From contig CAZSVP010000001.1 of the NCBI GenBank assembly GCA_964610335.1, forward strand, positions 61,324-125,323: a DNA stretch of 64,000 nt, in the 5' to 3' direction. A model generated the notes under the pieces. The model saw only the letters and a list, made by a program, of their open reading frames with translations. It searched no databases and was not told where the DNA came from. This DNA is from an uncultured Candidatus Saccharibacteria bacterium. Lineage in GTDB: Bacteria; Patescibacteriota; Saccharimonadia; CAILAD01; BJGX01. Shown here piece after piece: positions 2,513 through 43,292 of the stretch; positions within the stretch are counted from its first letter, which is position 1; each line of letters starts with the position of its first letter. A program made the translations under genes and the position numbers.

Positions 2513-4057
2513 TTACTTAGTTGATTGGCTGCGCTGCGACTTCAGCGTACGAAGTTTGTACGTCTCAGCCGACAGCTTGCCATCGCCTTGAACTTCATCA
2601 AAACTAGCAGGCTCTTTACTGTTAGCTATTGGTGAAATTATAGCATTTTTCAGATCATTTTGGAACAGCTTGAGCCGAGGGTTGCGAGTTGTAAGACCTA
2701 TCCATATAAGTAGTACTGAGTAGTAAGTAGTAATTTGCCAAAGGCTCGGCTGGATGATATTGATTTGAGATATTCGCCAACTGCTGATATAGCGCAACAA
2801 GTCAAACAGCACATTTGTACCATATGCCAACCACGTCCCCATAACAATCGAAGCACCAGGCACCAGCAAGTGTAATACTACCAAGGCCATGCCTACCATC
2901 ATAAGTGGTGGGATGATTGGCATGACTATTAGATTGGCCAATGGCGCTATCAGACTTATTTGCCCAAACTTGTAAGCTACTAATCCTAATGTAGCTATTT
3001 GAGCTGCCAGTGTAACTGCCAGTAACTCCATAAGGAGTTTTGGCCTAGATGGTAGTAGCAATTGCAATCTTGGGGTTAGTACAACTATTCCCACAAGTGA
3101 TAAAAATGACAATTGCCAACTCAAATCACTTAGTAAGTACGATGGGCTAATAGTAACCATAATGGCTGCACAAATACCAAGTGCGGGCAAAACTGCTCGA
3201 TCCTTGCCGTAATATCTAAGTACCAAGAATATTGAGGTCATGATCCCGGCACGCATGATTGAGGCGCCGGCACCTGTGAGTAGCACAAACCCCCATACCA
3301 GCCACAATGAGATCGCCAATCCACCCCAGCGCCAACGGCCGTTGAGCAGTCGATCGAGCATACCAGCTAGGATTGAAAGATTGTAGCCCGACACCGCAAT
3401 CACATGAGACAGACCTAACACTGTTAGCATATCCTGCAAATCCTTCGGTAACGATGATCGCTCGCCAATCAATATCCCGACCATGAAGTCACTGCTGGGC
3501 TTGGGCAAAGTAGCACCGACCTCGTTGATCAACCAATCCTTGGCTCGGATCTCAATCGGCTGGTTGGCGCTAATAACATCTACTTTGGCATAGCGTACAC
3601 CTGCCTCTGTACGCCCGAGGGTTGGCCAGAGCTTACCACTCACCTGGACACGATTACCTTGTTTAGCTATTCCAGTAAGCGATTTAACTCTGATGTTATG
3701 ATCAAACTGTTTGCCATTGATCGAAACACTGCCAATCTCAAATACATATTCTCCTTGTTGATCCCAGCTTGGCCGAGTTGCTACAGTACCAACTGCCACA
3801 ATCTTTTGGCCAAGAAAGTTTGTATATGAATATTGCTGTGCTTGTGAAAAGTAGAGATCCCCTCTCCAAATGCCAAGGCTTAAGCCAATCACCGCAAGTA
3901 GCACATAGGCATATTTAGAGTGGACAGTCGCCAAAGCTAACACACAATAAGCTGTTAACAGCAAGATCAAATTTGGCTGTATCAAAAAATGAGCGCTATA
4001 AACAATACCAACCAGAAAGCCTAATGCGAGTATAATTATTTGGACAGTTCGACGCAT
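2513..4057 (-). CDS. comEC: ComEC/Rec2 family DNA internalisation competence channel. Membrane domain only, no metallo-beta-lactamase domain.
   Basis: 514-aa polytopic membrane protein. An N-terminal OB-like soluble insert (DUF4131-like) is followed by the competence-domain helices (...LGLSHVIAVSGYNLSILAG...). Confidence 0.7.
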   Translation of the reverse strand: MRRTVQIIILALGFLVGIVYSAHFLIQPNLILLLTAYCVLALATVHSKYAYVLLAVIGLSLGIWRGDLYFSQAQQYSYTNFLGQKIVAVGTVATRPSWDQQGEYVFEIGSVSINGKQFDHNIRVKSLTGIAKQGNRVQVSGKLWPTLGRTEAGVRYAKVDVISANQPIEIRAKDWLINEVGATLPKPSSDFMVGILIGERSSLPKDLQDMLTVLGLSHVIAVSGYNLSILAGMLDRLLNGRWRWGGLAISLWLVWGFVLLTGAGASIMRAGIMTSIFLVLRYYGKDRAVLPALGICAAIMVTISPSYLLSDLSWQLSFLSLVGIVVLTPRLQLLLPSRPKLLMELLAVTLAAQIATLGLVAYKFGQISLIAPLANLIVMPIIPPLMMVGMALVVLHLLVPGASIVMGTWLAYGTNVLFDLLRYISSWRISQINIIQPSLWQITTYYSVLLIWIGLTTRNPRLKLFQNDLKNAIISPIANSKEPASFDEVQGDGKLSAETYKLRTLKSQRSQSTK

Positions 4058-4283: not shown

Positions 4284-5447
4284 TCAATGCTCACGATCTT
4301 GTATGTGAGATTTGTACCGAGCATTGGCATCGCGAGCTGCGTCGCCCATAAGTTCAGCAATGCTACGCCTGTGAACATCGGCTAGTTCTTCGGCACCGTG
4401 TTGTCTGGCAAGAGAGTACTTTGGAGGTACCGGGAACCACATGTTTAGCTCCATAACTCTCCAACGCTGGCCATCCCACGCAGCGTCTACTGCCCCATGC
4501 AAATGGTTTACTTCTGCCCTGGTTAGTATGTCATTGGCTATTGTGGTTGCCATACTTTCCAATTCAGGTGGCAAGTGTTGCTGAATATCAAGCAAAAGCC
4601 AATCGTCGTCTTCAGTATCTCTAGTGCGTACTGTTTGGTCACCCTTGGGCTTAAATAGCCTCGCATAAGGTATGATCAACTTCTTATCACCCCAGTACAG
4701 CATCAGTCGAACTTCCTTGGGGTCATGTTTGTGTGCCTCATAATCTTGCTTGCAGCTTGATATTACTGCATTGGCTATTTCACTAGGGAAGGGTTGTTTT
4801 GTATCAATCAACTCTTGCAACAAGTAGCCGTGTTCGCGATTGAGATTCAAATCAATCTGGCCATCGGCACTCAACAAATGTGTTGTCCCGTCTTGTTGTA
4901 CCTCTACCTTGTACTTGTTGTCGTCCAGCAAATCTTGTTTGGGTACTATAAGCCGACCTCGGCTATCCTCAGACTTAACAGGTTTTAATACCACTGAGTC
5001 AGTACCAATATCTTGCAACTGCTTTTTTAACTTGTCAGGCTCGACGACCAAAGTAAGTGGCTGTAAATCACCTATAAACTCATAAGCCTTGTCTTTCTCG
5101 TCAAGTTCTCTTACCTTAGCTGCATTTACAACACTTGGCCCAAACTGCTCAACCTCTGGTGCAATGTCACGTCCGTAGGTACGAATCGAAGTTGCCCCTA
5201 CCGGCATCTCTTGATCCGCCGGGCTGGTTTTGACATGCAAGCTATCACCATCTCTTTCAATATTGACGGCATACGGCACTACCATCCCTGACTCCATATC
5301 AAACTGTTCGTTGCCACGTACTACAAAGACTTCTACCCCTTGGCCATGAAGTTCCTCAATAACTCTACGATAGCCCTCACCACTCAAAGTCTTGTCGCTA
5401 CCATAACCTTCACGAAAGTACATCAAGGATTTATCATTGGTTTCCAT
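4284..5447 (-). CDS. Divergent ATP-grasp family protein of 387 aa with a roughly 150-aa N-terminal extension
   Basis: ATP-grasp-like motifs: VVLKPVKSEDSRGRLIV (phosphate-binding loop), YLLQELID (hinge), and AVDAAWDGQRWRVMELNMWFP (the Mg-binding E-x-N motif). It is the last gene of the RimK-like operon. Confidence 0.5.
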   Translation of the reverse strand: METNDKSLMYFREGYGSDKTLSGEGYRRVIEELHGQGVEVFVVRGNEQFDMESGMVVPYAVNIERDGDSLHVKTSPADQEMPVGATSIRTYGRDIAPEVEQFGPSVVNAAKVRELDEKDKAYEFIGDLQPLTLVVEPDKLKKQLQDIGTDSVVLKPVKSEDSRGRLIVPKQDLLDDNKYKVEVQQDGTTHLLSADGQIDLNLNREHGYLLQELIDTKQPFPSEIANAVISSCKQDYEAHKHDPKEVRLMLYWGDKKLIIPYARLFKPKGDQTVRTRDTEDDDWLLLDIQQHLPPELESMATTIANDILTRAEVNHLHGAVDAAWDGQRWRVMELNMWFPVPPKYSLARQHGAEELADVHRRSIAELMGDAARDANARYKSHIQDREH

Positions 5448-5490
5448 ACCAACAATTGTAACTTAAATGGCTATAAATTAGTAATGCTTA

Positions 5491-6396
5491 CTAGGCGCCG
5501 ATACGATCTTTACGGCGTTTGCCAAGAGCCTTGTCAACGACATAGTCAATGATCTCACCAGCTATGTCTTCACCCGTTTGCTGTTCAATGCCTTGCAGGC
5601 CAGGGCTGGAGTTTACCTCTAGCACCAGTGGTCCTTTTTGTGAGCGAATAATGTCAACTCCTGCTATGTTAAGCCCTAGCGTTCGAGCTGCCTTGATCGC
5701 CACATTGGCTTCTTTCTTGGTAAGTTCTGCTGGTTGGGCCTTACCACCGCGATGTAGGTTGCTACGAAAATCACCTTCAGCTCCCTTGCGAAGCATAGCA
5801 CCTACAACTCGATCCCCCACAACTATTACTCTCAAATCTGCTCCGTTGGCTTCCTCAATAAATTCTTGGATTAATATGTTGGCACCTAGCCCATAAAATG
5901 CATCGATTACTGACTTGGCAGCTTTCTTTGTTTCGGCCAGAACCACACCAATACCATGAGTACCTTCTAATAGTTTAATAATCACAGGTGTGCCACCAAC
6001 CATATCAAGTAGCTCCTCGGTGTATTCACCTTCACGAGCAAAGACTGTCTTGGGAATATTTACTCCAGAACGAGCAAGTATCTGCATGCTACGTAGCTTG
6101 TCGCGACTGCGTACCAAGGCCAGTGAGCTAACAGAACAATACTTACGCATCATCTCAAACTGCCTGATAACCGCACTACCATAAGAAGTGATGGATTGAC
6201 CAATTCGAGGAATTACTATGTCTACATCGGCTAGTGACTCGCCTTCAAATACGATGTTAGGTTTGTTGGACTCAATGTCCATATAGCATTTTGCATGATT
6301 CACTACCAACGCCTCATGGCCTCGTTTTTCACAAGCTTCTACAAGTCGCATAGTAGTATAGTTTTTGGGGCCTCTTGAGAGGATAGCAATTTTCAT
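5491..6396 (-). CDS. rimK: RimK-family alpha-L-glutamate ligase (ATP-grasp)
   Basis: 301 aa. [21 protein letters not shown]..., [35 protein letters not shown], and [21 protein letters not shown] are canonical RimK/ATP-grasp motifs. Confidence 0.85.
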
Positions 6397-6400
6397 AGTC

Positions 6401-8665
6401 TTATTTTACCAGTAATTTAGCAGTATCTACTAGGAATCGCCCAGCCAAAGCTCGACGACCTAACAAAGCCGGGAATATCATATTTGATCGATTACTCAAT
6501 GTAAAGGGCGTTACGAAGGTCTTGCCATTTACAGCAACCTCCAAATATACGACGTACCTGGTTTCTAACACCCCACTGGTGTTACGCACTCGGACCGTTT
6601 CATAGTCGTAGGATGTTGCTGGCTTTTCGGTTGATGCTGAAGGATGTTTTTCAACCAATGGCCAATACTTGATATAGTTCTTACCTTGCTGATCAACCTC
6701 TTCGACAACATCCTGACAATGTAGTGCACTGTAGTCTGCCCCAGAGTCAACTCGTGCTTCCACACCACTAAGGCCTAGCTGCTGAAAATCAAGCATTGCT
6801 TTGCGACCAATAATGTCAGTTTGGTCAAGTTGCTTGGATGATTTGCGAGTTTTGGGACGTGCTGCAAATGAAGTACTTGCCATCAAAAACAACACATTGC
6901 GGTGTTCGGACTTAAAAATATTGTCTTTAGAGTAGGCATAATGCTCACTTGTCATAGGATCGATTAGATAATTTCCAATGCGCGAGAAGTAACTGCTAGA
7001 ATCCTGCAATATTGGGTCGAACAATCTAGAGTTGTATCCACAAAGTGATGCTGCAACCAAGAACTCGTATTTATTATCAAGGCTAACACTCGCCCAAGAT
7101 TTATATATTGTCCTTTCGGCGACTTTTAGTAGCGCGCTACAGCGTAGGTCATTAACTCCCACATTATAAAACTCAGACAACCCAATAATAATATGTGTTA
7201 CAAAGTATAGCTGCAGTTGATCAGCAGTAGCTTGATCGATGCCTAGCCTACTTTTATTGGCTGCATAGCTATCGGCAATCTCTGTTAGTGCTGGCAATGG
7301 ATCCGGCAGCTGTTTTGATAGCTTCATGTTATGTTTGCTATAGAACCTGGCAAGATACAAGAAGTTTATGGCGTGGGTTGAAAGTATCATGAGTGCGTCT
7401 TTGTCTTCAAGCAAAACATTGTATAACTCGACCATGTACTTTTCATCTACGAACTTCTTGGCTTGTTCTCGCAGATCTTGTTGGTATATAGTCTCACAAA
7501 ACAGAACTTTAAATAGTATTCCGGTATAAGCTGTCAGTTGTGGATATTTAGCAAAGTACGGCGCTCTAGCCTCGGCATTCTTTGTCTTCTTACCACGAGT
7601 CTTTGAGTTTGTTTCAAAGATCTTCTGTAATTTACCAGCTGATTCCTTTGCTGAGAGACCTATGTATTCTTCTCTTAGTTCTAGCAAACGATGATGATAC
7701 TGTATATCCCTACCCCAGAGATACATACGCGAGTAATAATGGAACGCTTTGTTTTGGTTTGTTTTAAACGCCTGATCAAATGTGTCTTTGACAGCAAGGT
7801 AGGTTTCTTTGTGCCGAGTTTGAGAATTTTTTAGGTAGCTACAGATATTGGCAGCAACATCAATGCCAGTAACGTTTTGGAATTCTTGCCAATCAGCGGT
7901 AGTGCCAATTTCCAAAATGTAATACTGCTTAGTACGCTCATCTTGAATAATATCAATACTTGCAAACTCCAGCCCAAAGACTGCAGTTGCTCGTAGCGAC
8001 GTAGCTTTGAGCTGTTCTAATATGGCAGTATTTGACTCTTCTGCAGCCATACCACCTTGGCTAATATTGTTCACGATACTACCTGGTTTTGCACTACGAT
8101 GCATTACTCCAAGTACAGATCCGTTCAACACTAAAACACGCCAGTCACCTTTGTTTGGTATGTAGGTTTGGAATATATAATCCTTGTACTTCTTATCAAA
8201 CTTAGGCAAGTCAGTATTACTTTTAAGCAATACAATATTCTTGCCTTTTGTACCATAATTTGGCTTAGCAATAATAGGGAAGTATACTACACCCTGCTTG
8301 ATAGCATCTTCTAAGTCACTTAAGTTCCTTGGCCGAACTGTCGGGATAGCATACTCAGGCATATTCTCAGCTATCACGCTTTGCTGATAATATTTGTAGC
8401 TTGTATATGGGTTGTTAAGCGATATTCTATTGAGTAAGTGGTTGTCTTGTTCAATCAGCCTAGCAGCTGCGGCTTTTTCGGAACGGATATCCAACGATGA
8501 ACTACGCCATACCACTGCGGAATTATTGAACTTAAGCTGGCTATTTAGGTCCTTTCGAGGATTCAAGTTTACTATCTTAGTACTAAACCCATGTTTTTTG
8601 GCTGACGCTTGTAACTTTTGTACATGATAGTCTTTTGAATCTCGGGAGATTATTACTAGTTTCAT
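6401..8665 (-). CDS. Three-domain fusion: N-terminal RimK-like ATP-grasp ligase (about 290 aa), an unknown alpha-helical middle domain (about 310 aa), and a C-terminal DUF785/retropepsin-like domain (the putative ATP-dependent zinc protease, RimB-like).
   Basis: N-terminus: [49 protein letters not shown]-terminus: [20 protein letters not shown]...[46 protein letters not shown], typical of Zn_protease/DUF785. Confidence 0.7.
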
Positions 8666-8670
8666 ACAAA

Positions 8671-9528
8671 CTATCCAAATCTTTTCTTAAGCTCTACCAC
8701 TACTTCTTCAGCAACATTTACTCCTGTCATAGCTTGGAAACCATTGTCTCCGTCCCACTCTGGTGCAGAGTTAATCTCTAAGAAAAAGAATGCACCTGTC
8801 GACTTGTCTTGTATCACATCAACTCCACACAATTTGTACCCAATATTGTTAGCCATTCGCACCGCTATATTACTAACCTCTCGTACAACCTCAGGGTCTG
8901 TCTCATGCTCTGAACTTCCTCCTTGAGAAATGTTGTTTAGATAGTGTCCTTTGCGAGCAATGCGCTTCATCACACCCAAAGCCCGCCCCTCAAACACAAT
9001 AATGCGCCAATCACCGTCGTTAGGGATAAAGTTTTGGAATACCATGTCTGAAATGATTGGCTTTATTTCCTTTAGTTGAATGGCTGATTTTACTAGCACA
9101 ATACCCTTGCCCTGCGCACCATAATTTGGTTTGGCTATAAACGGATAATGCAGCATATTGGCTTCAATTGCTGCCTTTAATTCTTTAAGTAGATGGAACC
9201 GATAAGTAGCTATATGTGGAACATGTTTGTCGTGTTCTGCCACCATTTGCTGTACAAATTTGTACGCCACAAATGGTCGCTGCAATACTGCGTCATTGAT
9301 AACATACTTGTCTTTGAGAATCTCACCAACCACAGCTCGCTCCGATCTAATATCCAATTTGGATGCACGCCAAAGCACAACATCACCAAATTGCTCAACA
9401 TCCGCTACAATTGTATTTGGATTATGCAGGTGATGCACTTGAGCCTCAACATTGTGTTTCTTACAAGCATCAATTAGCTGTTGAACATGCCAATTACTTA
9501 TTGATTTTGAAACAATAGAAAACTTCAC
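8671..9528 (-). CDS. RimK-like ATP-grasp ligase of 285 aa with a GTG start
   Basis: HYPFIAKPNYGAQGKGIVLVKS, DWRIIVFEGRALGVMKR, and GAFFFLEINSAPEW are ATP-grasp motifs. GGAGG sits 7 nt upstream of the GTG. Confidence 0.8.
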   Translation of the reverse strand: MKFSIVSKSISNWHVQQLIDACKKHNVEAQVHHLHNPNTIVADVEQFGDVVLWRASKLDIRSERAVVGEILKDKYVINDAVLQRPFVAYKFVQQMVAEHDKHVPHIATYRFHLLKELKAAIEANMLHYPFIAKPNYGAQGKGIVLVKSAIQLKEIKPIISDMVFQNFIPNDGDWRIIVFEGRALGVMKRIARKGHYLNNISQGGSSEHETDPEVVREVSNIAVRMANNIGYKLCGVDVIQDKSTGAFFFLEINSAPEWDGDNGFQAMTGVNVAEEVVVELKKRFG

Positions 9529-20044: not shown

Positions 20045-23000
20045 TTATGGCTGAGTCGTGATAGTTTGGCTACTTGTAGTTGGCTCAGGCACTTGTGGTG
20101 ACTGTTGTTTTTTGAGTAGCTCTATTTCGGCTTCAAGCTTTTTAAGTCGATCTTCGTGATCTTCTACAATTCCACTAAGCTTCTTGAGCTCGGTAGAAAT
20201 AGACTCAAGCTGTAATCCTTGGTCTGCTAACAGCTTGTTAACATCGTCAATCTTACCGCCTTGTTCTTGCACGGCCTTGGTAATAAGAGCTGTAACCATA
20301 TCATAGTTAAAGCCCTCAATCTTGCCGTCGCGATAGAATACTAGCCGGTCATCAACCTTTGCTGCTTCTTCCGCCACAAAACCAATTGCTGCCCTATCAT
20401 CTGTATTATAGTTAAAGCTAACCGCTCGGAGCTTCATAAGATCATCCAACCCAAGGCTAAGATCCTCTATGTTATGTTTGTAGCGCTCCGATGAAACATT
20501 ACAAACACCGGCTTGCTTCACTAGTAACCCGCTGGCATCAACACATACGTACTGGCTCGATGCACCACCATTGGTAACATTATTAATATCGACCGTACCA
20601 CCAGCTATGGCCAACGTGTTGTTATTGGTGACAGTATACGGACCTCCTGTACCAAGTCCGATACCAACTGAGCCATCACCATCAACTGTCATGTTTTGGC
20701 CAAAAGCCGTTGATACTGATCCATTTGCAGCATTGGTATATCCAAATGATGTTGAGTCTAAACCCGTTGCAGATGTCGACTGGCCAAAAGCGGTGCCATA
20801 GTTGTCTGCCACTGTCTGGTACCCAAAGGCTGTGGCATAGAGTCCAGCATCTGTTTGAAATCCAAAAGCGGTGCCATAATCTCCACTAGCTGTTGTTTCA
20901 GCCCCAAATGCGGTAGACCCACCACCAAGCGCATTTGTCGTGAGCCCAAAAGCAGTAGAATTGTCGCCCGAGGCAATCGAACCTAACCCAAAAGCTGTAG
21001 AATACTCACCGCTGGCAGTTGTACTTGCTCCAAAGGCTGTAGCGCCTGTGTCTAATGCATTAGTATCAAACCCAAATGCGGTTGAGACTGCACCTGATGC
21101 CACTGAGGAGAACCCAAATGCGGTTGAGTACCCACCACTAGCCAAAGTACCAGATCCAAAGGCAGTGTCAGCCAAGCTTGAGGCAGTTGTAGCATTCCCA
21201 AAAGCTGTAGAAAGCGTACCACTTGCAACCGTGCCAGCACCAAAGGCAGTTGATTGACCACCACTAGCAGTACTGGTGTTACCAAAGGCTGTTGAGTAAA
21301 GACCGCTGGCAGTAGTAATGGTTCCAAAAGCTGTAGCACCCTGGCCAGTGATAGTATTGGTAAACCCAAACACAGTACCATAGACTGCGCCTGCACCAAT
21401 TGTATGCTGATGTCCAAATGCAACTGCACCGGTAGCACCAAGTGGAATCACGTTATTGTCACCAAAGGCAGTAGAACCGATAGCGTTGGCTTGATTGCCT
21501 TGACCAAATGCGATACTTCCTTCTTCACTTGCAGTGTTTAGCGTCCCAAAAGCAACAGCATAAAGGCCAGATGCGGTATTATTGGTGCCAAAGGCAGTCG
21601 AGTAGTTACCGCTTGCAACTGTAGTAGCACCAAATGCCGTAGACCCAAAACCACTTGCCAATGTGTCATCACCAAAAGCGGTTGAGCGGATTCCGCTTGC
21701 CTCAGTATTAATACCAAATGCTGTAGAATCAAAATTAGAAGCAAGCGTATCGTGGCCGAAGGCTGTGGTGTTTGAGCTTGTGGCATCACTACCATTGCCA
21801 AATGCAGTTGAGCCAGTTCCCGATGCAATAGTATTTATACCAAACGCAACAGCACCGTCATTAGTGGCCTGTGTGGTAGCGCCAAATGCCACTGACCCAA
21901 ATCCTGATGCCAGCGTTCCAACCCCAAAAGCGGTTGATTGATTGCCACTAGCGACCGTGCCCAACCCAAAGGCTGTAGCTGTATTACCCGAAGCATCAGT
22001 GCAAGCACCAAAAGCGGTTGCGCTAAATCCTGATGCAGTTGGATTGGGCAATAATGCACTTGCACAGTCTGTAGCTGGCACTAGATAGTAACTACTACCA
22101 AATGATGTAGCAAAGTCACCACTAGCAGTTGTAGTGGCACCAAATGCAGTGCTCTCAAAGCCGCTGGCGATTGTCCCTTGACCAAAGGCAGTTGAGCCAA
22201 AGCCGCTGGCGAGAGATGCAAAACCGAATGCAGTTGATGCTTGACCATCTGCGTGCGCGATAATTCCGAAAGCAGTTGAGTTGCTCCCACTAGCTATGGA
22301 ACCGCTACCAAAAGCAGTACTTTCAAATCCACTCGCTATGGTATTGTCTCCAAAAGCGATTGAATAATCGCCTATTGCCTGTGTGGTTAAACCAAATGCT
22401 GTTGAAAATTCTCCACTAGCTAATGACCCGGATCCAAACGCAGTCGAGCCTGTTCCACTTGCTTCTGTATTGTCGCCAAGAGTTGTAGATAGTAACCCAC
22501 TTGCAATTGTACTAGATCCAAGAGCGGTTGAGTTTGAACCACTAGCAATATTATTACTACCAAGAGCCATAGCATTGTCGCTCGTTGCCTGATTATGAAA
22601 GCCAAGTGCCACAGTGTAGTGATCACTGGCTACATTGGTGTCGCCCATTGCTAATGAGCTAAAACCGCTTGAAGTATTGAAGATCCCAAATGCCATTGCG
22701 TAGGAATTGTTAACAATATTGCCTGCGCCAATCGCAGTGGCAACCACACCAGACACGTTATTGTTGGAGCCGAAAGCAACTGATCCTAAGTTTGAAGTAA
22801 TATTGTCTATTCCGCCTGCAATGCTAGATGTACCGCTGGCAATATTGTCTTGCCCCACTGCTATTGAGTAGTATCCAACATTGGCGTCATCCCACTGAGT
22901 CCCTGTGACAGTACCGGCTCTCAATGCTGCCTTACCTGGGTTCCAAAACATTAGAGACTTACCTGCCCCTGGAGCAGGTAGAATAGGTGCAGCCGTACCG

Positions 23001-23566
23001 AGAGTTCCGGTAGCAATTAGACTACCACCGGCCGTTGCGTCAAATGTCAGATCAAAACCATTTTGCGGCAAGGTAGTATTGTGAAGCAGCGGATTAGTAC
23101 CAAACTCTAGTGTTGCACCACTTAGATATGTACCGTTTTGAGCTGTGGTAACTCCTGGCCCGCCTGCTGGACCGGTTGCACCAGTCGCACCTTGCAAACC
23201 AGTTGCGCCCACAGGGCCGGCCGGACCGGGTATTGGCGAGGTTGTGATTTGTTGAAGAGTTTGCTGAGTATTAGTCACAAACTGTTGCAGTTGAGAAGAT
23301 AGGTTGTTGAAAGTAACTGTTTCACCAGCAATTTTTAATCCAGTCACACTGCCGTCAGCTAAGTCCGTCTTACCAACTAAGCTACTATCAGGCGAGGGAC
23401 ACCAGCGGTCATTGAGCCCAAGCATACGGATATACCATACATCAGTACAGAGGCCACGAAGTATAATCACTATCACTAAAAACAATGCAGCTAAGCCGAC
23501 TAGTAGCCAGATGAGCCAGTGACTATTTGATTGATTCTTATCTTCTGTTGACTGACTTGTCGCCAT
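20045..23566 (-). CDS. Giant membrane-anchored surface fibre protein of 1,173 aa. Order of parts: N-terminal TM anchor, collagen-like G-X-Y triplets, about 50 degenerate 13-14-aa (A/S)SGxxSTAFG repeats (YadA-head/Hep_Hag-like), then a C-terminal peptidase S74 intramolecular chaperone (tail-spike autoprocessing) domain.
   Basis: TM LIWLLVGLAALFLVIVIIL. PGPAGPVGATGLQGATGATGPAGGPG. Repeats such as NTIASGTGSTAFG and DTLASGFGSTAFG. C-terminus SSERYKHNIEDLSLGLDDLMKLRAVSFNYNTDDRAAIGFVAEEAAKV...YDMVTALITKAVQEQ matches the S74 CIMCD, followed by a coiled coil. Confidence 0.8.
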   Translation of the reverse strand: MATSQSTEDKNQSNSHWLIWLLVGLAALFLVIVIILRGLCTDVWYIRMLGLNDRWCPSPDSSLVGKTDLADGSVTGLKIAGETVTFNNLSSQLQQFVTNTQQTLQQITTSPIPGPAGPVGATGLQGATGATGPAGGPGVTTAQNGTYLSGATLEFGTNPLLHNTTLPQNGFDLTFDATAGGSLIATGTLGTAAPILPAPGAGKSLMFWNPGKAALRAGTVTGTQWDDANVGYYSIAVGQDNIASGTSSIAGGIDNITSNLGSVAFGSNNNVSGVVATAIGAGNIVNNSYAMAFGIFNTSSGFSSLAMGDTNVASDHYTVALGFHNQATSDNAMALGSNNIASGSNSTALGSSTIASGLLSTTLGDNTEASGTGSTAFGSGSLASGEFSTAFGLTTQAIGDYSIAFGDNTIASGFESTAFGSGSIASGSNSTAFGIIAHADGQASTAFGFASLASGFGSTAFGQGTIASGFESTAFGATTTASGDFATSFGSSYYLVPATDCASALLPNPTASGFSATAFGACTDASGNTATAFGLGTVASGNQSTAFGVGTLASGFGSVAFGATTQATNDGAVAFGINTIASGTGSTAFGNGSDATSSNTTAFGHDTLASNFDSTAFGINTEASGIRSTAFGDDTLASGFGSTAFGATTVASGNYSTAFGTNNTASGLYAVAFGTLNTASEEGSIAFGQGNQANAIGSTAFGDNNVIPLGATGAVAFGHQHTIGAGAVYGTVFGFTNTITGQGATAFGTITTASGLYSTAFGNTSTASGGQSTAFGAGTVASGTLSTAFGNATTASSLADTAFGSGTLASGGYSTAFGFSSVASGAVSTAFGFDTNALDTGATAFGASTTASGEYSTAFGLGSIASGDNSTAFGLTTNALGGGSTAFGAETTASGDYGTAFGFQTDAGLYATAFGYQTVADNYGTAFGQSTSATGLDSTSFGYTNAANGSVSTAFGQNMTVDGDGSVGIGLGTGGPYTVTNNNTLAIAGGTVDINNVTNGGASSQYVCVDASGLLVKQAGVCNVSSERYKHNIEDLSLGLDDLMKLRAVSFNYNTDDRAAIGFVAEEAAKVDDRLVFYRDGKIEGFNYDMVTALITKAVQEQGGKIDDVNKLLADQGLQLESISTELKKLSGIVEDHEDRLKKLEAEIELLKKQQSPQVPEPTTSSQTITTQP

Positions 23567-34823: not shown

Positions 34824-34892
34824 AGAGTATCTCCTTATGTAATTCTTAACATCAGTGTAATACGTTTATCAAAACTTATGCAATAAAATCAC

Positions 34893-34922
34893 TTGACTCG
34901 TTCGTAGTATGTTCGTTATACT
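34893..34922 (+). promoter_or_regulatory. lexA promoter (TTGACT-N18-TATACT) with an embedded GTTC-N7-GTTC direct-repeat putative LexA operator at 34900-34914
   Basis: acTTGACTcGTTCgtagtatGTTCgtTATACT. The operator sits in the spacer between -35 and -10. The GTTC-N7-GTTC form is the SOS box described for Alphaproteobacteria. Confidence 0.5.
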
Positions 34923-34956
34923 ATTATTCAATAGCATAAGTAATTATTGGAGGGAT

Positions 34957-35586
34957 ATGGCTACTAAACAACCACTTACTAAAAAGCAACGTAAGACGCT
35001 CGACTTTGTTACTACGTTTATTGAACAACGTGGTTACTCACCTAGTTACCGCGAGATTGCGGCTGGGCTAAATCTGCATTCAGTTGCCACAGTAGCTCAA
35101 CATGTTGATACTTTGGTCAAGAAGGGGCTACTCATCAAGGGCAACAACTCCGCTCGATCCCTGATACCTGTAGAAGATATTGAAGAACAGGTCAACTCTA
35201 TGGGTGTGCAGCTACCTATTATGGGTATGATTGCTGCTGGTCAGCCAATTGAAACTCTCGAAGGCCATACTGAGACCCTCGAAGTTCCACCATTTATGGT
35301 CGGCACCAAGAAGTCTTATGTGCTGCAGGTGAAGGGTCAAAGTATGATCGAAGATGGTATCAACGATGGCGACTTTGTAGTTATTCAGGAAAAAGAAGTT
35401 CCTAGCAAGGGAGACGTGGTGGTAGCTCTAGTAAACAACTCCGAGGCAACACTCAAGCGTTACTACAAGGAAGGCAATCGTGTGCGTCTGCAGCCCGCCA
35501 ACTCCACTATGGAGCCTATATACGTCGAGGCTGGTACCCCACTTCAGATCCAAGGTGTTGTGATTGGCTTAATTCGCAAATACTAA
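34957..35586 (+). CDS. lexA: LexA repressor (wHTH plus S24 peptidase)
   Basis: GGAGGG SD. N-terminal HTH YREIAAGLNLHSVATVAQHVDTLVKKGLL. Cleavage-site region AAG. Ser/Lys dyad region VKGQSMIEDGI...ALVNNSEATLKRY. Confidence 0.85.
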   Translation: MATKQPLTKKQRKTLDFVTTFIEQRGYSPSYREIAAGLNLHSVATVAQHVDTLVKKGLLIKGNNSARSLIPVEDIEEQVNSMGVQLPIMGMIAAGQPIETLEGHTETLEVPPFMVGTKKSYVLQVKGQSMIEDGINDGDFVVIQEKEVPSKGDVVVALVNNSEATLKRYYKEGNRVRLQPANSTMEPIYVEAGTPLQIQGVVIGLIRKY

Positions 35587-35587
35587 A

Positions 35588-36010
35588 TTGATTGAGAAAA
35601 ATCAAAAACTATTTGACGAGCTAAGATCTCTCAACTTACCTATTGGCGAATACGCAGTTACAGCTAGTGGGCCGCTAGGAATAAGAGGTATTCGCGAGAT
35701 TAGCGATATAGATTTGGTGGTAAGCAATAAGCTATGGCAACAGCTCAAAGAAGAGTATCCAGTTGATAAGTCTGGTATCAAAAAGATTATTATTAGTGAC
35801 AAGATTGAAGCTTTTTGTGAACAATCGTTTGCCCATATACGTGAGCCAAACGATCCCGATGTAACTACACAAATCAAAACTGCCGAAATTATCGAAGGAC
35901 TTCCTTTTGTTTCGCTCGATGTCACTAAACACTACAAGAAAAAGATGTCCCGTCCAAAGGATTTAAAAGATATTGAGCTGATAGATACTTGGATTCTAGA
36001 AAACAGCTAG
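35588..36010 (+). CDS. Nucleotidyltransferase-fold (minimal NTase) domain protein of 140 aa, probably co-transcribed with lexA
   Basis: GPLGIRGIREISDIDLVV shows the G-x(n)-[DS]-h-[DE]-h NTase signature. There is a 1-nt gap after the lexA stop. Confidence 0.5.
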   Translation: MIEKNQKLFDELRSLNLPIGEYAVTASGPLGIRGIREISDIDLVVSNKLWQQLKEEYPVDKSGIKKIIISDKIEAFCEQSFAHIREPNDPDVTTQIKTAEIIEGLPFVSLDVTKHYKKKMSRPKDLKDIELIDTWILENS

Positions 36011-36598
36011 CTATTCGAGCACCCAGATCCAGTCGATGCAGACTTTGAATAGGTAGAGATTCACAAACGATCCTACCAAAGCGATTACAAGTTTTAGAAG
36101 AGCATCGAGTGGCTGTGAGCCTATGGTAAGCACAAATTGTCCAAAGCTTTCTAACCAATACGGATATGTTATGTTGAGCGACACTATTCCTAGTAATACT
36201 ACGGCAGCTACCAATCCTACTTGCATCAACACAGGTCGCAAGCGCTCTTGCTTGGTACCACGATTAACATATTCTCCTTCTAGCACTACCTCACTGCGTG
36301 CCTCTGAATAGAAGGAGTAAATAGAGTAGATCACTACATAAGCCACTATTCCCACTCCTGTCCAGAAGATTACCAGTGAGGCAAGATTGAGATACTGTCC
36401 CTTGCCAAATTGTTGAATTTGCTCAGCAAAACTGGCTTGCACGGCTGGCTCAGCTAGCACAGTACCGTTGGTAAGACGAAGCAATATTAGGTTGAAATTG
36501 AGTAGTATTGGTATACCAATTGTTAGTATCACCAATATATACCACTCCCTCACAGAAGGTATTAATATGCGCTCAAGCTGTTCGCGAGTTGGTTTCAA
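36011..36598 (-). CDS. Hypothetical polytopic membrane protein of 195 aa
   Basis: Four or five TM helices. No motif. Confidence 0.45.
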   Translation of the reverse strand: MKPTREQLERILIPSVREWYILVILTIGIPILLNFNLILLRLTNGTVLAEPAVQASFAEQIQQFGKGQYLNLASLVIFWTGVGIVAYVVIYSIYSFYSEARSEVVLEGEYVNRGTKQERLRPVLMQVGLVAAVVLLGIVSLNITYPYWLESFGQFVLTIGSQPLDALLKLVIALVGSFVNLYLFKVCIDWIWVLE

Positions 36599-39815: not shown

Positions 39816-42800
39816 CTAGTAGGCTTGCCAGTTGAACTCGACGTCGCTAGATTGAGCTTTGTTGAGCTCAATAGTAAAGCTGTCTTTGTCGATGGCTGTG
39901 GTACGATACGGCCCATCTACAAAATCTTGGGGGCTAACTACTACGTTTGGAACTGAAACGAAGCTCGACGCAAAAGGAACCTTGAGTTTGGTATCACCAG
40001 CGACTACCTTGGCTTTGCCTTTGTTGTCAGAGCTAAATTCTACTCGACCATTCACTACCAGGTTTCCATTTATTGTAATTGCTTTGGCCTTGGCAAGTTC
40101 TGTCAATACGTCAACCGAAACAGTAGTTTGGGAATCAAGTTGAGACTTCAGATCGTTGATCTGCGACTGTTGTTGTTTGATAGCTTGTACAAGATATGGC
40201 GTAAGCCCGGCGTAACTAACTGACTTCATACCATTTTTGTCTGTAAGTACTAAGTCTGGCATGATCGCTTCCAGCTCCTGAGCCAAGAAACCAACATGAA
40301 CAGGGTCGTCGTCTTTCTCGGCTGTGAGGTTGTAGCTATACACTTTGATAGCACCAATCTTCTCAAGCGAGTCGGTAATCTCACTGATGTTTTTCTTAAC
40401 TCTAATGTCTGAGGTACAAGTAACTGCTCCAACTACGTTTGGCGTAACATCACAAGTACCACCGGCGTTTTCAAAGCGTGCCACCGTAGTGCCACTAACA
40501 AGGCTTCCGTCGCCAACATGTAGGTTAAATCCTGGTGCAGAATTGTGTACACCTACATATCCAGCTGTCTGATTAAGGAGTATATTCCCATCTGTAGTAC
40601 CCGTACCAGATGCAATCACCACATCACCGCCTGCAGCACCATTACCATTGGCTCCTAGGATAGACAATGCGGCGCCAGCCGTAGCAGCAGATGTTGAATC
40701 ATTGATCTTTATAGTATGAGCTAACTCTTGATCAAAAAATACATCACCACCTAGTTGCGTGTTGGCAGCAAAGTTTACATCATCTAGCGCACTAACGCTT
40801 CCTCGAAATGACGAGTTACCATAAACTTGAAGTGCACCAATTATATTGGTGTTACCGGCAGTAAGCGTGGTAGCCCCACCACCATCTGTTAATGAGGTTG
40901 AAGATTCTGAATTGAAAGTAAGATCGAGTGCACCAGATACGCCTACTCTACGTGTGCTGCTCATCTGTACAGTGTCTACTGTGTTTGAGCCATCGGTAGA
41001 ACCGCCAATCAAGAACACGTAGCCGTTCGTGACAACAGCTGCTTGCTGTTCAATACCAGTTGCCATATCACTCTCATGCTCCTTCCAGGTTCCTAAATCA
41101 CCATCAGGCTGCAATGGGGCAGTCGAGGTAATAACTTGTGGCACTCCGACAAGATCACCACCAACCCTATAGAGATTGCCGCTATTTACAAACGCCGTAT
41201 GATTGAATGTGCCATAAACAGGACCATTGCTAGCTGTACTCCAGGCGTTGTTTGAACCATCGGGATTCAATGAAGCATATTTTACGGAATCACCTCCTAA
41301 ATCTAAGTAGTACAAGAACCCGTTGGCCACTACCGCATCTGCTGCCTTCCAAGAGCTTGGCAGCGGCGTGGCGCTAGTTGTCCAACTAGCGATAGTTCCA
41401 TCTGAATTTGGCTTGGCATAGTAGACCGAACTGAAGTTACTGAAGTTGTCAGTACCAGCTACTACGTACATATAACCATTGTTTTGAGCCCCACCATAGA
41501 AGGCCCTTAAACCAGGTAAGCTAGTAGTGCTGCGCCAAGTACCAACACTGCCGTCGGCATTGATTCGAGCATAGTATACTGTCGAGACTGCAAATGGGCC
41601 GACTCCGTCTTCACCACCTACTACGTATATGTAACCGTTTTGGATGAATGTCTTATGCCCAGAACGAGGTACTGGTAATGGAGTGGTAGAAGACCAACTC
41701 AATGTTCCTTCAGCTCCAACCTTGGAGTAATAGACACTAGTGGTCGCCGAGCTTACGCCATCATCACCACCCGTCAGATATATATACCCATTAGCATAAC
41801 CATACCCCATATTCTTGAGTGGTGTTGGAAGAGTATTGGCCGGACTACTCACCCAGCGTCCGGTTGGATTATACGGCGAGGCAATATTTGCTGTAAGGGC
41901 AGCACTATTCTCACTATTTAAGAATGTAGAACTACTGAGTGCATTGGCCGCTGCACCAGTAGTTAAAATATTGAATGCTGTGGTTGGGTATGGTCCAGAC
42001 AGGGTATTGGTACCGGCCTGATCAATTATGGCAATTCCGGCCACGTTGGCAACAATTCCCCCACCATTGTTTACTGGACTTAAAACTTGAACACCTGATA
42101 GATTGGTAATTGTGCCAGTACCAGTATTACCGTATCCTACAAACAGCCCACCACCATTGGTGATGGTACCATCGGAAGTATTGAACATATATGAGCCAAG
42201 TCCGTATCCAGTAGTTATGGTGCCCGACCCCACATTGACCAATGTACCATTGACTCCCGCGCCAGCCGTGACTGTACCAGAGCCTTGATTGTAAAACGCG
42301 CCGAACTCGCCTGCACCGAGAGTAATATTCCCTGTTCCACTATGAACCGCAAGTGAAGAAGCCCCACTTAAACCAGTGTAATCAAAACCATTTTCAACCT
42401 CAACTTGGGCAGATGAGTAACTACCTGTGAAACCAGATGCTCCAGCATCAGTATCGCCTTTGATATAAATTTCACTACCTGTACCAGAGTAAACAGTCGG
42501 TGTTACTGCAAATGGTAAGCCGCTAAATTCTTCTTGAACAGCCAAAACCCTAGTAGTAGGAATGGGTGTCATGGGTATTACAGGTATATTCATCGGCCCT
42601 AAAGCAATTGGCCCTATGATGCTGCCTGTACCAAAAGTAGAATCTGCACCGATTGCAGCATGATTGTGGATCCAGCCATTGCCGTACACATCAAGTGACT
42701 GTTGTGGTGATGCTGTATTTATACCCAGACTACCCGCGGCATTGAATGTTGACATCACACTGCCTGAGCTGTTCTCCAAGGCAAACATATCTGCCAACTG

Positions 42801-43292
42801 GCCACTGGCACCACGAATTATACCTCCTGCAAAGTAGGGATTAGCTGACTGAATAGCAAAGTTCTTACTTGGCTCCACTGCATAGGAATTACATATTACA
42901 CTCTGAACACAGCCGACAGTCGGATTGTTTGTCACAAACAGTGATGTATTGTTTGAACTGTTCGCGTTTGTGACTGACAGGTTTTGTTGGTTTTGGTTAA
43001 TAGCTGACTGTAAGTACGCAGCAATACCCGGTGTAAGTTGGTCAAACCCAATCGATCCATCGGCTATTTCAGCGCTCGCGGCCGGTAATCGTCCACCACT
43101 GCCTTGTTGACTATTGCGAACATTACCCAAATCCCACCATAACAGAAGTATTAGTATTAACAACAGTATCACAGCCACAATTATCACATCGGACAATATA
43201 CGTAACCATTGTACGCGCTTGGCTGTTACTTCACTTTCATGTACTAGATCGATTTGGTCGACTTGACCAGTTTGATCGTAAGGCTCTTCCAC
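39816..43292 (-). CDS. Giant membrane-anchored surface protein of 1,158 aa. Order of parts: N-terminal TM, a beta-rich Gly/Thr/Ser region, Kelch-type beta-propeller repeats, a peptidase S74 intramolecular chaperone domain, then a roughly 100-aa C-terminal tail.
   Basis: TM VIIVAVILLLILILLLWW. Kelch-like repeats (NGYIYVVGGEDG..., NGYMYVVAGTDN..., NGFLYYLDLGGD..., NGYVFLIGGSTDG). S74 motif TSDIRVKKNISEITDSLEKIGAIKVYSYNL...VHVGFLAQELEAIMPDLV...SYAGLTPYLVQAIKQQQSQINDLKSQL. Confidence 0.8.
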   Translation of the reverse strand: MEEPYDQTGQVDQIDLVHESEVTAKRVQWLRILSDVIIVAVILLLILILLLWWDLGNVRNSQQGSGGRLPAASAEIADGSIGFDQLTPGIAAYLQSAINQNQQNLSVTNANSSNNTSLFVTNNPTVGCVQSVICNSYAVEPSKNFAIQSANPYFAGGIIRGASGQLADMFALENSSGSVMSTFNAAGSLGINTASPQQSLDVYGNGWIHNHAAIGADSTFGTGSIIGPIALGPMNIPVIPMTPIPTTRVLAVQEEFSGLPFAVTPTVYSGTGSEIYIKGDTDAGASGFTGSYSSAQVEVENGFDYTGLSGASSLAVHSGTGNITLGAGEFGAFYNQGSGTVTAGAGVNGTLVNVGSGTITTGYGLGSYMFNTSDGTITNGGGLFVGYGNTGTGTITNLSGVQVLSPVNNGGGIVANVAGIAIIDQAGTNTLSGPYPTTAFNILTTGAAANALSSSTFLNSENSAALTANIASPYNPTGRWVSSPANTLPTPLKNMGYGYANGYIYLTGGDDGVSSATTSVYYSKVGAEGTLSWSSTTPLPVPRSGHKTFIQNGYIYVVGGEDGVGPFAVSTVYYARINADGSVGTWRSTTSLPGLRAFYGGAQNNGYMYVVAGTDNFSNFSSVYYAKPNSDGTIASWTTSATPLPSSWKAADAVVANGFLYYLDLGGDSVKYASLNPDGSNNAWSTASNGPVYGTFNHTAFVNSGNLYRVGGDLVGVPQVITSTAPLQPDGDLGTWKEHESDMATGIEQQAAVVTNGYVFLIGGSTDGSNTVDTVQMSSTRRVGVSGALDLTFNSESSTSLTDGGGATTLTAGNTNIIGALQVYGNSSFRGSVSALDDVNFAANTQLGGDVFFDQELAHTIKINDSTSAATAGAALSILGANGNGAAGGDVVIASGTGTTDGNILLNQTAGYVGVHNSAPGFNLHVGDGSLVSGTTVARFENAGGTCDVTPNVVGAVTCTSDIRVKKNISEITDSLEKIGAIKVYSYNLTAEKDDDPVHVGFLAQELEAIMPDLVLTDKNGMKSVSYAGLTPYLVQAIKQQQSQINDLKSQLDSQTTVSVDVLTELAKAKAITINGNLVVNGRVEFSSDNKGKAKVVAGDTKLKVPFASSFVSVPNVVVSPQDFVDGPYRTTAIDKDSFTIELNKAQSSDVEFNWQAY

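Follow-up and report, generated by a model that had tools for sequence, protein, structure and literature searches.

The GTTC-N7-GTTC direct repeat is the LexA box of the Alphaproteobacteria (PMC8565304). For the Patescibacteria, a study of the SOS response (Sanchez-Osuna, Barbe & Erill 2017, Environ Microbiol 19:3465) is cited in a passage of PMC7739468 among the cases in which LexA has evolved a direct-repeat motif, and the same study is also cited in a passage of PMC8565304. Our literature search found no further paper describing the motif of that study. The locus described here lies in a 64-kb stretch of DNA, which we refer to as the window, and carries a lexA gene followed by a small gene, ORF2. 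The preliminary description of this DNA had presented a direct-repeat operator as a surprise for the lineage. That surprise falls away, since the source is a Saccharibacterium and the passage of PMC7739468 already counts the Patescibacteria among the lineages whose LexA has a direct-repeat motif, so that the lexA operator of this locus is a further case of a known type. The reading we prefer, with a probability of roughly 0.7, is that of an ordinary self-repressed Saccharibacterium lexA with ORF2 as a strain-specific passenger.

lexA and its promoter

The lexA gene (34957..35586, forward strand) encodes a protein of 209 amino acids, with a winged helix-turn-helix DNA-binding domain and an S24 self-cleaving peptidase domain. 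Its product matches PF01726 (LexA_DNA_bind; E 1.5e-16, 60 bits against a cutoff of 23.7), PF00717 (Peptidase_S24; E 1.3e-30, 106 bits against a cutoff of 23.3) and TIGR00498 (185 bits against a cutoff of 111). Ala94-Gly95, Ser129 and Lys167 are kept, and align with Ala84-Gly85, Ser119 and Lys156 of the E. coli protein. The matches and the retained residues bear out the identity first given to the gene, which encodes a bona fide LexA with its cleavage site and Ser/Lys dyad. The loci with the best LexA matches (64-91% identity) come nearly all from Saccharibacteria or Saccharimonadia metagenome-assembled genomes, with a few under other candidate-phylum or generic labels. The first in-frame ATG, at 34909, was rejected as the start because this codon lies inside the promoter; the ATG at 34957 stands behind a Shine-Dalgarno sequence, GGAGGG (34949..34954, forward strand), and GGAGG is kept 5-12 nt before the start in most Saccharibacteria relatives.

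Upstream, on the same strand, the -35 hexamer TTGACT (34893..34898) and the -10 hexamer TATACT (34917..34922) form a TTGACT-N18-TATACT promoter (34893-34922), with 10 of 12 consensus matches and an 18-nt spacer, which was the top promoter-like site of the region in a consensus scan. Relatives carry TTGAC(A/T) at the equivalent place and TATAAT or TATACT directly after the second half-site. Within the spacer, GTTCGtagtatGTTCG occupies 34900-34915 and contains two copies of GTTC, at 34900-34903 and 34911-34914. The promoter with GTTC-N7-GTTC in its spacer is therefore present as originally reported, and the two direct GTTC units with an 11-bp period, overlapping the lexA promoter, are the features of a direct-repeat LexA box. 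The conserved repeat unit is GTTCG and not GTTC, giving a putative LexA operator of the form GTTCG-N6-GTTCG (GTTCGTAGTATGTTCG, 34900..34915, forward strand), with the same 11-bp period and with its second copy abutting the -10 hexamer.

Comparison with related species-level Saccharibacteria genomes revealed that both GTTCG half-sites are kept in 17 distinct lexA promoters while the 6-nt spacer varies. At loci L001-L015, L023 and L026, GTTCG-N6-GTTCG lies between TTGACA and TATAAT in every one. The information content is 1.3-1.9 bits at the half-site positions as against 0.2-0.7 bits in the spacer. Among remoter Saccharibacteria the first half is degenerate (nTTCG) and the second half intact, and the lexA promoters of other Patescibacteria carry the related direct repeats GTTCT-N6-GTTCT and GTTCGG-N5-GTTCGG. 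Conserved half-sites around a variable spacer are a clear footprint of an operator, with LexA as its putative ligand.

A 19-nt scoring matrix built from the 17 distinct promoters gave 24.6 bits for the lexA operator site and 11.7 bits for the next best site in the 64-kb window. Shuffled sequence does better than this runner-up, its best scores averaging 13.6 bits, and the lexA site alone stands above background. One of 50 shuffles produced a chance site of 23.1 bits, and for this reason the single-site statistic is weak and the case for the operator rests on conservation. The same shuffle is in keeping with the view that the repeat arose by chance in an AT-rich promoter spacer and does not serve as a LexA operator, as are the pattern counts in the window: GTTC-N7-GTTC is not enriched (2 found, 1.54 expected), and GTTCGT-N5-GTTCGT, when at most 2 mismatches are allowed, occurs at chance level (3 against 2.8). 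We consider this view highly improbable. Against it, every Saccharibacteria lexA promoter in the comparison has its half-sites at the same position, with differing bases between them, related repeats recur in the lexA promoters of other Patescibacteria, and strong extra copies stand before other genes in three relatives. The significance of the repeat comes from its position and conservation and not from a count of the bare pattern. What stands of the operator first proposed is a repeat conserved as an operator would be; what does not is GTTC-N7-GTTC as its form, the unit being GTTCG and the bare pattern occurring no more often than chance.

The matrix scan found no second strong operator site in the 64-kb window, and lexA is the sole DNA-repair gene there; recA, uvr and ruv genes are all absent from it. 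The strong extra sites in the three relatives lie before a secreted NlpC/P60-like gene (L019 and L022) and an HNH gene (L024). These are not classic repair genes.

ORF2, a nucleotidyltransferase-fold gene

ORF2 (35588..36010, forward strand) encodes a stand-alone nucleotidyltransferase-fold protein of 140 amino acids from an unnamed family. It starts at a TTG, 1 nt past the TAA of lexA and in the +1 frame relative to it, and an assembly made independently from a different sequencing run has the same junction and gene call. The conserved N-terminal residues Asn5, Phe9, Leu17 and Pro18 need the TTG start, and the dN/dS ratio is 0.14 at a dS of 0.77. ORF2 is a real gene under purifying selection. 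A LexA-ORF2 fusion made by read-through or frameshifting was considered and rejected, ORF2 lying in the +1 frame behind the TAA with a conserved N-terminus of its own. Between lexA and ORF2 the forward strand carries no terminator-like site, and the internal promoter-like sites are no commoner than in shuffled sequence, giving no sign of a separate ORF2 promoter. Since ORF2 also has no Shine-Dalgarno sequence and begins with TTG, it may be poorly expressed.

The predicted structure of ORF2 (pLDDT 96.6) has an alpha-beta-alpha-beta-alpha-beta core with three catalytic carboxylates, which places it in the pol-beta-like nucleotidyltransferase-fold superfamily. The nucleotidyltransferase signature noted in the preliminary description is intact, reads Ala26-Ser27-Gly28-x11-Asp40-Ile-Asp42-Leu and fits hG[GS]-x9-13-D-h-[DE]-h. 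Ser27, Asp40 and Asp42 are each kept in at least 90% of 112 family members, and Glu74 is conserved too, so that the proposal of a nucleotidyltransferase fold with conserved catalytic residues holds for the predicted fold. Lys117 and the block Arg122-x-Lys124-Asp125-x-x-Asp128 are nearly invariant; this C-terminal K...RxKDxxD block resembles what we take to be the C-terminal motif of the AbiEii/MenT toxins. The nearest structures are TM1012, MenT1, LnuA and ANT(2''), with the toxin MenT1 as second-best neighbour and a further toxin, MenT3 (TglT), lower in the list.

The family is large, with about 2,800 clusters at 50% identity and members of about 140 amino acids, and has neither a Pfam model nor a solved structure. 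ORF2 matched nothing in Pfam, NCBIfam (including its resistance models) or PADLOC, and in PHROGs only phrog_12854, an entry of unknown function. Family profiles built from 19 and 111 members found no match among PDB sequences, the larger one at E <= 10. Searches of plasmids and GenBank phages gave no match to ORF2 either, which does not fit a mobile antibiotic-resistance gene. Members of the family are fused to APH, GNAT (Acetyltransf_8), GrpB, PNP_UDP_1, alpha/beta-hydrolase and PLD domains, and neighbouring genes include UbiD/UbiA, UbiE-type methyltransferase, HAD, NUDIX and SecA genes.

ORF2 is not a classic MNT, CD-NTase or pol-beta enzyme. Its signature does not define an MNT because it is common to the whole nucleotidyltransferase superfamily. 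NTP_transf_2 of Pfam did not match ORF2, and only one of 19 relatives matched it weakly (E 4e-4). No HEPN partner was found, the neighbours of ORF2 being lexA and a membrane protein gene, and none occurs among the 25 families listed around 80 family loci. The structural and sequence similarity and nearby effector genes that mark CD-NTases were not found for ORF2. PF08843 (AbiEii/DUF1814) had no match at E <= 1 among the 19 relatives, and PADLOC had none. By analogy with LnuA and ANT(2''), structural neighbours that work in this way, we tentatively favour a reaction in which a small molecule or metabolite receives a nucleotidyl group (or a phosphoryl group derived from a CDP-alcohol), an assignment that falls just short of an even chance. 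The domain fusions and gene neighbours of the family lean the same way, as does the lack of a recurrent small partner gene at its 80 loci. A toxin acting on RNA or protein is less likely.

Variable gene content behind lexA

The stop codon of ORF2 touches that of a convergent gene for a 195-aa membrane protein (36011..36598, reverse strand), which lies outside the operon and forms the conserved right-hand border of a slot behind lexA. In 13 relatives (L002-L006 and L010-L017) the homologue of this gene ends 2-73 nt past the lexA stop and the slot is empty. Judged from gene order, the convergent membrane gene originally came straight after lexA. The slot holds an NTP_transf_6 gene (E 1e-55 for this family) in both L001 and L008, joined in L001 by a 129-aa gene, and a 124-aa gene of unknown function in L007. 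No ORF2 homologue adjoins lexA in 80 related lexA loci, and no lexA lies near the ORF2-family gene in 80 metagenomic family loci. Elsewhere, a lexA-linked ORF2 occurs only in one sister lineage (L081-L083), where a 137-aa gene stands between lexA and ORF2 and overlaps ORF2 by 8 nt. The LexA of the window is 100% identical to that of L081, despite a dS of 0.91.

The 137-aa protein had no significant match in Pfam, NCBIfam, PADLOC, PHROGs or PDB sequences. Its model reached a pLDDT of only 68, and the only Foldseek match, to HisE (1y6x), was weak and partial (probability 0.85 over 55 columns, E 0.6). YxKLVRDxI proteins of this kind may be MazG-like NTP pyrophosphohydrolases (COG4997). The gene is absent from the window, and the protein is also found alone, far from any nucleotidyltransferase. 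A similar gene precedes the ORF2 homologue in L163 and L164, and a small gene upstream of another homologue, P0009, overlaps it.

These arrangements raised the question of whether ORF2 could be a MenT/AbiEii-like nucleotidyltransferase toxin under the lexA promoter, which upon damage would arrest growth by blocking tRNA charging, with the 137-aa protein as its antitoxin. SOS-induced toxins of E. coli follow a comparable logic. The ranking of MenT1 and MenT3 (TglT) among the structural neighbours, the nearly invariant Lys117 and C-terminal block, the 8-nt overlap in L081-L083, of a kind frequent in toxin-antitoxin pairs, and the small genes ahead of ORF2 homologues in L163, L164 and P0009 all speak for such a toxin. 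We nevertheless regard it as unlikely. ORF2 of the window is without the 137-aa gene and yet remains intact at its low dN/dS, where an unguarded toxin would be expected to be lost or inactivated; the 137-aa protein, for its part, also occurs away from any nucleotidyltransferase. The 80 ORF2-family loci have no recurrent small partner gene (their neighbours are SecA, HAD, methyltransferase, NUDIX and other genes), neither PADLOC nor Pfam AbiEii/DUF1814 gave a match, and a toxin would not be expected to occur fused to domains of the APH, GNAT and nucleoside phosphorylase types.

The filled slots also bear on whether ORF2 belongs to the SOS regulon by design and as a conserved part of it, with a role in template-independent polymerisation, in second-messenger synthesis or, as a nucleotidyltransferase, in repair. 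It is packed 1 nt behind lexA with its catalytic residues conserved, and the NTP_transf_6 genes of L001 and L008 mean that nucleotidyltransferase-fold genes recur behind lexA. Set against this, the adjacency is confined to the window lineage and the one sister lineage with an identical LexA, the slot is empty in thirteen relatives, and ORF2-family genes elsewhere have no LexA box before them because none lies near lexA. A conserved SOS role is accordingly very unlikely, and the SOS-induced nucleotidyltransferase first put forward is not a conserved design, the adjacency being absent from both sets of 80 loci.

Four of the five filled lexA slots hold a nucleotidyltransferase-fold gene, a larger share than would be expected of a neutral hot spot. 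It is conceivable, though quite unlikely, that in this Saccharibacteria clade the 3' end of lexA is a dedicated slot that repeatedly captures small nucleotide-handling genes under SOS control, forming an undescribed damage-induced accessory module. If so, the module might act on nucleotides, RNA or a host-derived compound. The genes in question are those of the ORF2 family and of NTP_transf_6, nucleotidyltransferase families unrelated to each other, and of a helical protein of 129-137 amino acids, perhaps MazG/PRA-PH-like. No repeats that would mark a cassette were seen at the slot junctions. An ancestral cassette of NTP_transf_6, the 137-aa gene and ORF2 with differential loss was also considered and set aside; the gene orders are compatible with it, but simple vertical descent is doubtful because the 137-aa protein is 49% identical between L001 and L081 as against 89% for the flanking membrane gene.

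Proposed regulation and comparison with known systems

Returning to our preferred reading of a self-repressed lexA with a passenger gene, a LexA dimer would sit between the -35 and -10 hexamers on the two direct GTTCG half-sites, one helical turn (11 bp) apart, and block RNA polymerase. After DNA damage, as is usual in the family, RecA on single-stranded DNA would stimulate LexA self-cleavage at Ala94-Gly95 through Ser129 and Lys167, and the promoter would open. In the window strain the transcript would run on into ORF2, given the 1-nt gap and the absence of a terminator or a separate promoter. Translation of ORF2 would probably be coupled to that of lexA, since ORF2 has a TTG start and no Shine-Dalgarno sequence. 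Its level would then rise with SOS induction as a by-product of the place of insertion, the space between lexA and the convergent membrane gene acting as a variable slot that is mostly empty in relatives and taken by other small genes in a few. Within the ORF2 protein, the metal ions would be coordinated by Asp40, Asp42 and Glu74, and the NTP bound by Ser27-Gly28 together with Lys117, Arg122 and Lys124.

The SOS link of ORF2 is probably incidental, and our understanding of the SOS response is thus unchanged by it. The ORF2 family now has a model of high confidence and a well-defined catalytic signature. GTTCG-N6-GTTCG, overlapping the -10 region, represents a conservation-backed putative LexA operator for the Saccharibacteria, and its matrix could help to delineate the SOS regulon in these bacteria, which are reduced and host-dependent.

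Among described nucleotidyltransferases, TM1012 (PDB 2ewr), a putative nucleotidyltransferase of Thermotoga maritima that is itself uncharacterised, shares 18% identity with ORF2 and shows no relation at the sequence level. The small antibiotic nucleotidyltransferases LnuA and ANT(2'')-Ia resemble ORF2 in fold but do not share its sequence family. Compared with MenT1, MenT3 (TglT) and AbiEii, ORF2 is smaller (140 against 195-290 amino acids), stands alone in the window and has no conserved antitoxin neighbour, DUF1814 match or PADLOC match. The lexA operator has closer counterparts. Like the alphaproteobacterial SOS box it is a GTTC direct repeat with a 7-nt gap in an autoregulated lexA promoter, whereas its conserved unit is one base longer (GTTCG) and it belongs to another lineage, the nearest LexA relatives retrieved here being Patescibacteria and not Alphaproteobacteria. 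With the LexA/SOS system of the Patescibacteria, as that system appears in the citing passages, it has in common the superphylum, a direct-repeat instead of a palindromic motif and a position in the promoter of lexA itself, the form GTTCG-N6-GTTCG being derived here from lexA promoters only.

The lexA gene and its putative operator

The window encodes a 209-residue protein (34957-35586, forward strand) with LexA_DNA_bind and Peptidase_S24 domains, which scores 185 bits against TIGR00498 (cutoff 111). Aligned to the E. coli protein, Ala94-Gly95 corresponds to the cleavage site and Ser129 and Lys167 to the catalytic dyad, and by sequence the product is unambiguously LexA. The ORF list begins the gene at ATG 34909, a codon that falls within the promoter; the starts used by relatives match a downstream position, so we place the start at ATG 34957, behind a Shine-Dalgarno sequence, GGAGGG (34949-34954, +). 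Both features on which the preliminary description was built are present. The core promoter, TTGACT cGTTCGtagtatGTTCGt TATACT (34893-34922, +), carries GTTC-N7-GTTC in its spacer and is the best sigma-70-like site in the region (10 of 12 matches, 18-nt spacer). The second feature, a 140-residue nucleotidyltransferase (NTase)-fold ORF termed ORF2, lies 1 nt behind lexA at 35588-36010 (+), in agreement with a second assembly. The entire core promoter is enclosed by a 16-nt inverted repeat with 81% complementarity (arms 34874-34889 and 34926-34941). The right arm, (G)CATAAGT, falls in the predicted 5' UTR of lexA and recurs downstream of the -10 element in several relatives (L001, L004, L005, L019, L022, L081).

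Among GTDB contigs sampled at one genome per species, the LexA loci most similar to that of the window (64-91% identity) come nearly all from Candidatus Saccharibacteria/Saccharimonadia MAGs, a few bearing other candidate-phylum or generic labels, and those of a second tier, at roughly 50% identity, from other Patescibacteria. In lexA loci L001-L015, L023 and L026 we observed GTTCG-N6-GTTCG between TTGACA and TATAAT; its second copy directly borders the -10 element, and the 6-nt spacers vary (TAGTTT, TATGCT, TATACT, CTATCT, GTCACT, TATTAT, CTTTAT). More distant Saccharibacteria (L016-L025) keep one GTTCG half intact beside a degenerate partner (nTTCG, TAGCG or TTACG). A 19-nt matrix built from 17 distinct lexA promoters holds 1.3-1.9 bits per half-site position versus 0.2-0.7 bits in the spacer. 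It is this comparative evidence, half-sites kept and spacer varied, rather than a bare pattern count that leads us to read GTTCG-N6-GTTCG in the window as a putative LexA operator, and it looks as expected of one; GTTC-N7-GTTC itself is not enriched in the 64-kb window (2 found, 1.5 expected). LexA bound to a repeat in the promoter spacer would occlude RNA polymerase. The lexA promoter is the only strong matrix site in the window, at 24.6 bits. The next-best match, at 11.7 bits, lies below the mean best score of shuffled sequence (13.6 bits; one shuffle reached 23.1).

Other Patescibacteria have related direct repeats in their lexA promoters, GTTCT-N6-GTTCT and GTTCGG-N5-GTTCGG; the GTTCGG type is often accompanied by another copy on the opposite strand, immediately past the -10 element. 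Two such boxes on opposite strands flank the -10 element in L031, L035, L044, L045, L051, L052, L070, L073 and L080, where GTTCGG-N5-GTTCGG is followed by GAACA-N6-CGAAC about 60 nt upstream of lexA, and most of these promoters carry the DnaA-box-like TTATCCACA upstream. Several of these MAGs are labelled Gammaproteobacteria. Their promoter type equals that of the Patescibacteria-labelled L043 and L051 and the Uhrbacteria L052 and L080, pointing to wrongly labelled bins.

The relatives' approximately 8-kb lexA loci have three more strong sites (20-23 bits) outside lexA promoters. Two are upstream of a secreted NlpC/P60-like 265-residue protein (L019 3089-3107, -; L022 5493-5511, -), whose gene in L022 adjoins a 545-residue large serine recombinase, and one is upstream of a 103-residue HNH protein (L024 6143-6161, +). 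No classic SOS gene stands behind any of the three, and these sites may point to LexA control of genes belonging to mobile elements or the cell wall.

Besides lexA, the 64-kb window contains no DNA-repair genes. The Patescibacteria SOS regulon described by Sanchez-Osuna, Barbe and Erill in 2017 is reportedly small and devoid of error-prone polymerases. The remaining content (ComEC, DnaK/DnaJ, FtsH, TilS, MurJ, LepA, pyrimidine genes and large surface proteins) is in keeping with the small genome of a host-dependent bacterium. A Peptidase_S74 (endosialidase chaperone) domain forms the C-terminus of two proteins, each about 1,160 residues long (20045-23566 and 39816-43292, both -), of which one has YadA-head repeats and the other Kelch repeats; these tail-fibre-like surface proteins of an epibiont genome may be host-attachment adhesins. 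At 5491-9528 (-) three RimK-like ATP-grasp genes lie in a row, one fused to a putative zinc-protease domain.

A variable slot behind lexA

The TAA stop of lexA is followed by one nucleotide and then the TTG of ORF2 in the +1 frame, a junction and gene call identical in the independent assembly, which stems from another run. The TTG start is required by conserved N-terminal residues. No Shine-Dalgarno sequence precedes it, so translation of ORF2 is probably coupled to lexA, and we infer SOS co-expression from the position behind lexA. The ORF2 stop codon touches that of a convergent gene for a 195-residue membrane protein.

In 13 relatives (L002-L006, L010-L017) the membrane-protein gene ends 2-73 nt past lexA with nothing between, so the empty layout is common and probably ancestral. 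The few lineages with genes in this slot always have them in lexA orientation. ORF2 occupies it in the window. In the sister lineage L081-L083, whose LexA is 100% identical, a 137-residue gene, X, overlaps an ORF2 homologue by 8 nt (L081 3475-4303). L001 has NTP_transf_6 (PF06042, E 1e-55) with a 129-residue X homologue (4648-5622), L008 NTP_transf_6 (PF06042) alone (738-1316), and L007 a 124-residue ORF without known family (2160-2534). Judged by this gene order, the content of the gap varies across this Saccharibacteria clade, making it a variable slot.

Comparison with L081 indicates unusually strong constraint on LexA and its promoter: LexA (L081 2805-3434) has no amino acid change at dS 0.91, and the promoter and upstream region (about 70 nt) are nearly unchanged. 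ORF2 is 81% identical to its L081 homologue with dN/dS 0.14 (dS 0.77), and is thus under purifying selection, yet evolves far faster than its neighbours (membrane protein dN/dS 0.008), as accessory genes do. No ORF2 homologue lies within 4 kb of lexA in 80 lexA loci, nor is lexA beside ORF2-family genes in 80 metagenomic loci or seven further contexts. The family's neighbours are heterogeneous (HAD hydrolases, methyltransferases, NUDIX, UbiD/UbiA, a restriction-modification island and a few more), with SecA upstream in ten CPR loci, and the 80 metagenomic loci hold no recurrent small partner gene. On this distribution ORF2 is a passenger in the slot; the sole point this leaves unexplained is the recurrence of NTase-fold genes, found in four of five filled slots, which would suit an unlikely alternative in which the slot gathers such genes under SOS control. 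ORF2 is a real NTase-fold gene, and its SOS link is local and probably incidental.

Only in L081-L083 and the ORF2-family loci L163/L164 do X-like genes (L081 3475-3888, L001 5233-5622, L163 2570-2872, L091 4001-4417) stand ahead of ORF2 homologues, and X also occurs alone. Behind lexA, X-like genes are neighbours of two distinct NTase families, and behind secA of an ORF2 homologue. Their helical products (100-138 residues; N-terminal YxKLVRDxI, C-terminal GSF/GGF...NPDRYxEI) match nothing in Pfam, NCBIfam or PDB sequences. They are reminiscent of MazG-like NTP pyrophosphohydrolases (COG4997), a likeness backed solely by a weak match to HisE (1y6x) in Foldseek. The L163 homologue of ORF2, which follows secA and the X-like gene, is annotated with only 90 residues (2983-3255), although its tblastn match reaches 3375, and has probably been frameshifted or is in decay.

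The ORF2 family and its possible activity

ORF2 matches no Pfam, NCBIfam or PADLOC model. A word-indexed search recovered 19 relatives. A profile run against 1.84 billion cluster representatives matched 2,808 of them at E <= 1e-3, of which 1,325 reached E <= 1e-10, and so revealed a large, unnamed family; most of the best 150 of the 2,808 are 125-165 residues long. Among 112 stand-alone members the proposed catalytic residues are conserved, as the preliminary description had anticipated, with D40 in 111 and D42 in 110. Also conserved are S27 (102), G28 (98), E74 (94 Glu, 10 Asp), K117 (110), R122 (106) and K124, D125 and D128 (109 each), and the window protein has them all. The ORF2-type domain occurs three times in one 3,540-residue protein (P0023), and fusion or repeat proteins also include P0029, P0043, P0051, P0061, P0078 and P0109. 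Fusion partners comprise GrpB, APH, GNAT (Acetyltransf_8), PLD, alpha/beta-hydrolase and the nucleoside phosphorylase PNP_UDP_1, and could guide substrate prediction.

An AlphaFold2 model from the 19-sequence alignment (pLDDT 96.6, pTM 0.90) has TM1012 as closest structural neighbour (score 11.6), followed by MenT1 (10.2), LnuA (9.3), ANT(2'')-Ia and MenT3/TglT (8.7 each), JHP933 (8.5) and FKRP (7.0), and Foldseek agrees. We favour, with a probability of roughly 45%, a nucleotidyltransferase acting on a small molecule or metabolite, since the modelled fold has LnuA and ANT(2'') as neighbours and ORF2 is without an antitoxin-like partner. A MenT-like toxin role, which draws on fold-level likeness to MenT/AbiEii toxins, we consider unlikely. 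No copies were found at BLAST level on plasmids or in GenBank phages; phrog_12854, whose function is not annotated, matches at 1e-8. Of the MNT, Abi, CD-NTase and pol-beta assignments put forward earlier, none was borne out beyond the toxin likeness: no classic MNT is among the top 60 neighbours, and CD-NTases and Family X polymerases score about 4 versus 11.6 for TM1012. The original observation is confirmed and its interpretation supported in part only.

A direct-repeat box had been thought unexpected in this lineage; however, PMC7739468 cites the work of Sanchez-Osuna, Barbe and Erill (2017) on SOS in Patescibacteria as an instance of LexA having acquired a direct-repeat motif. Going by that citation, the putative window operator, a good and usable motif, belongs to a type for which the Patescibacteria superphylum has precedent. 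The alphaproteobacterial LexA box is GTTC-N7-GTTC (PMC8565304), and the window lexA spacer carries the same pattern, which takes the form GTTCG-N6-GTTCG in its Saccharibacteria relatives.
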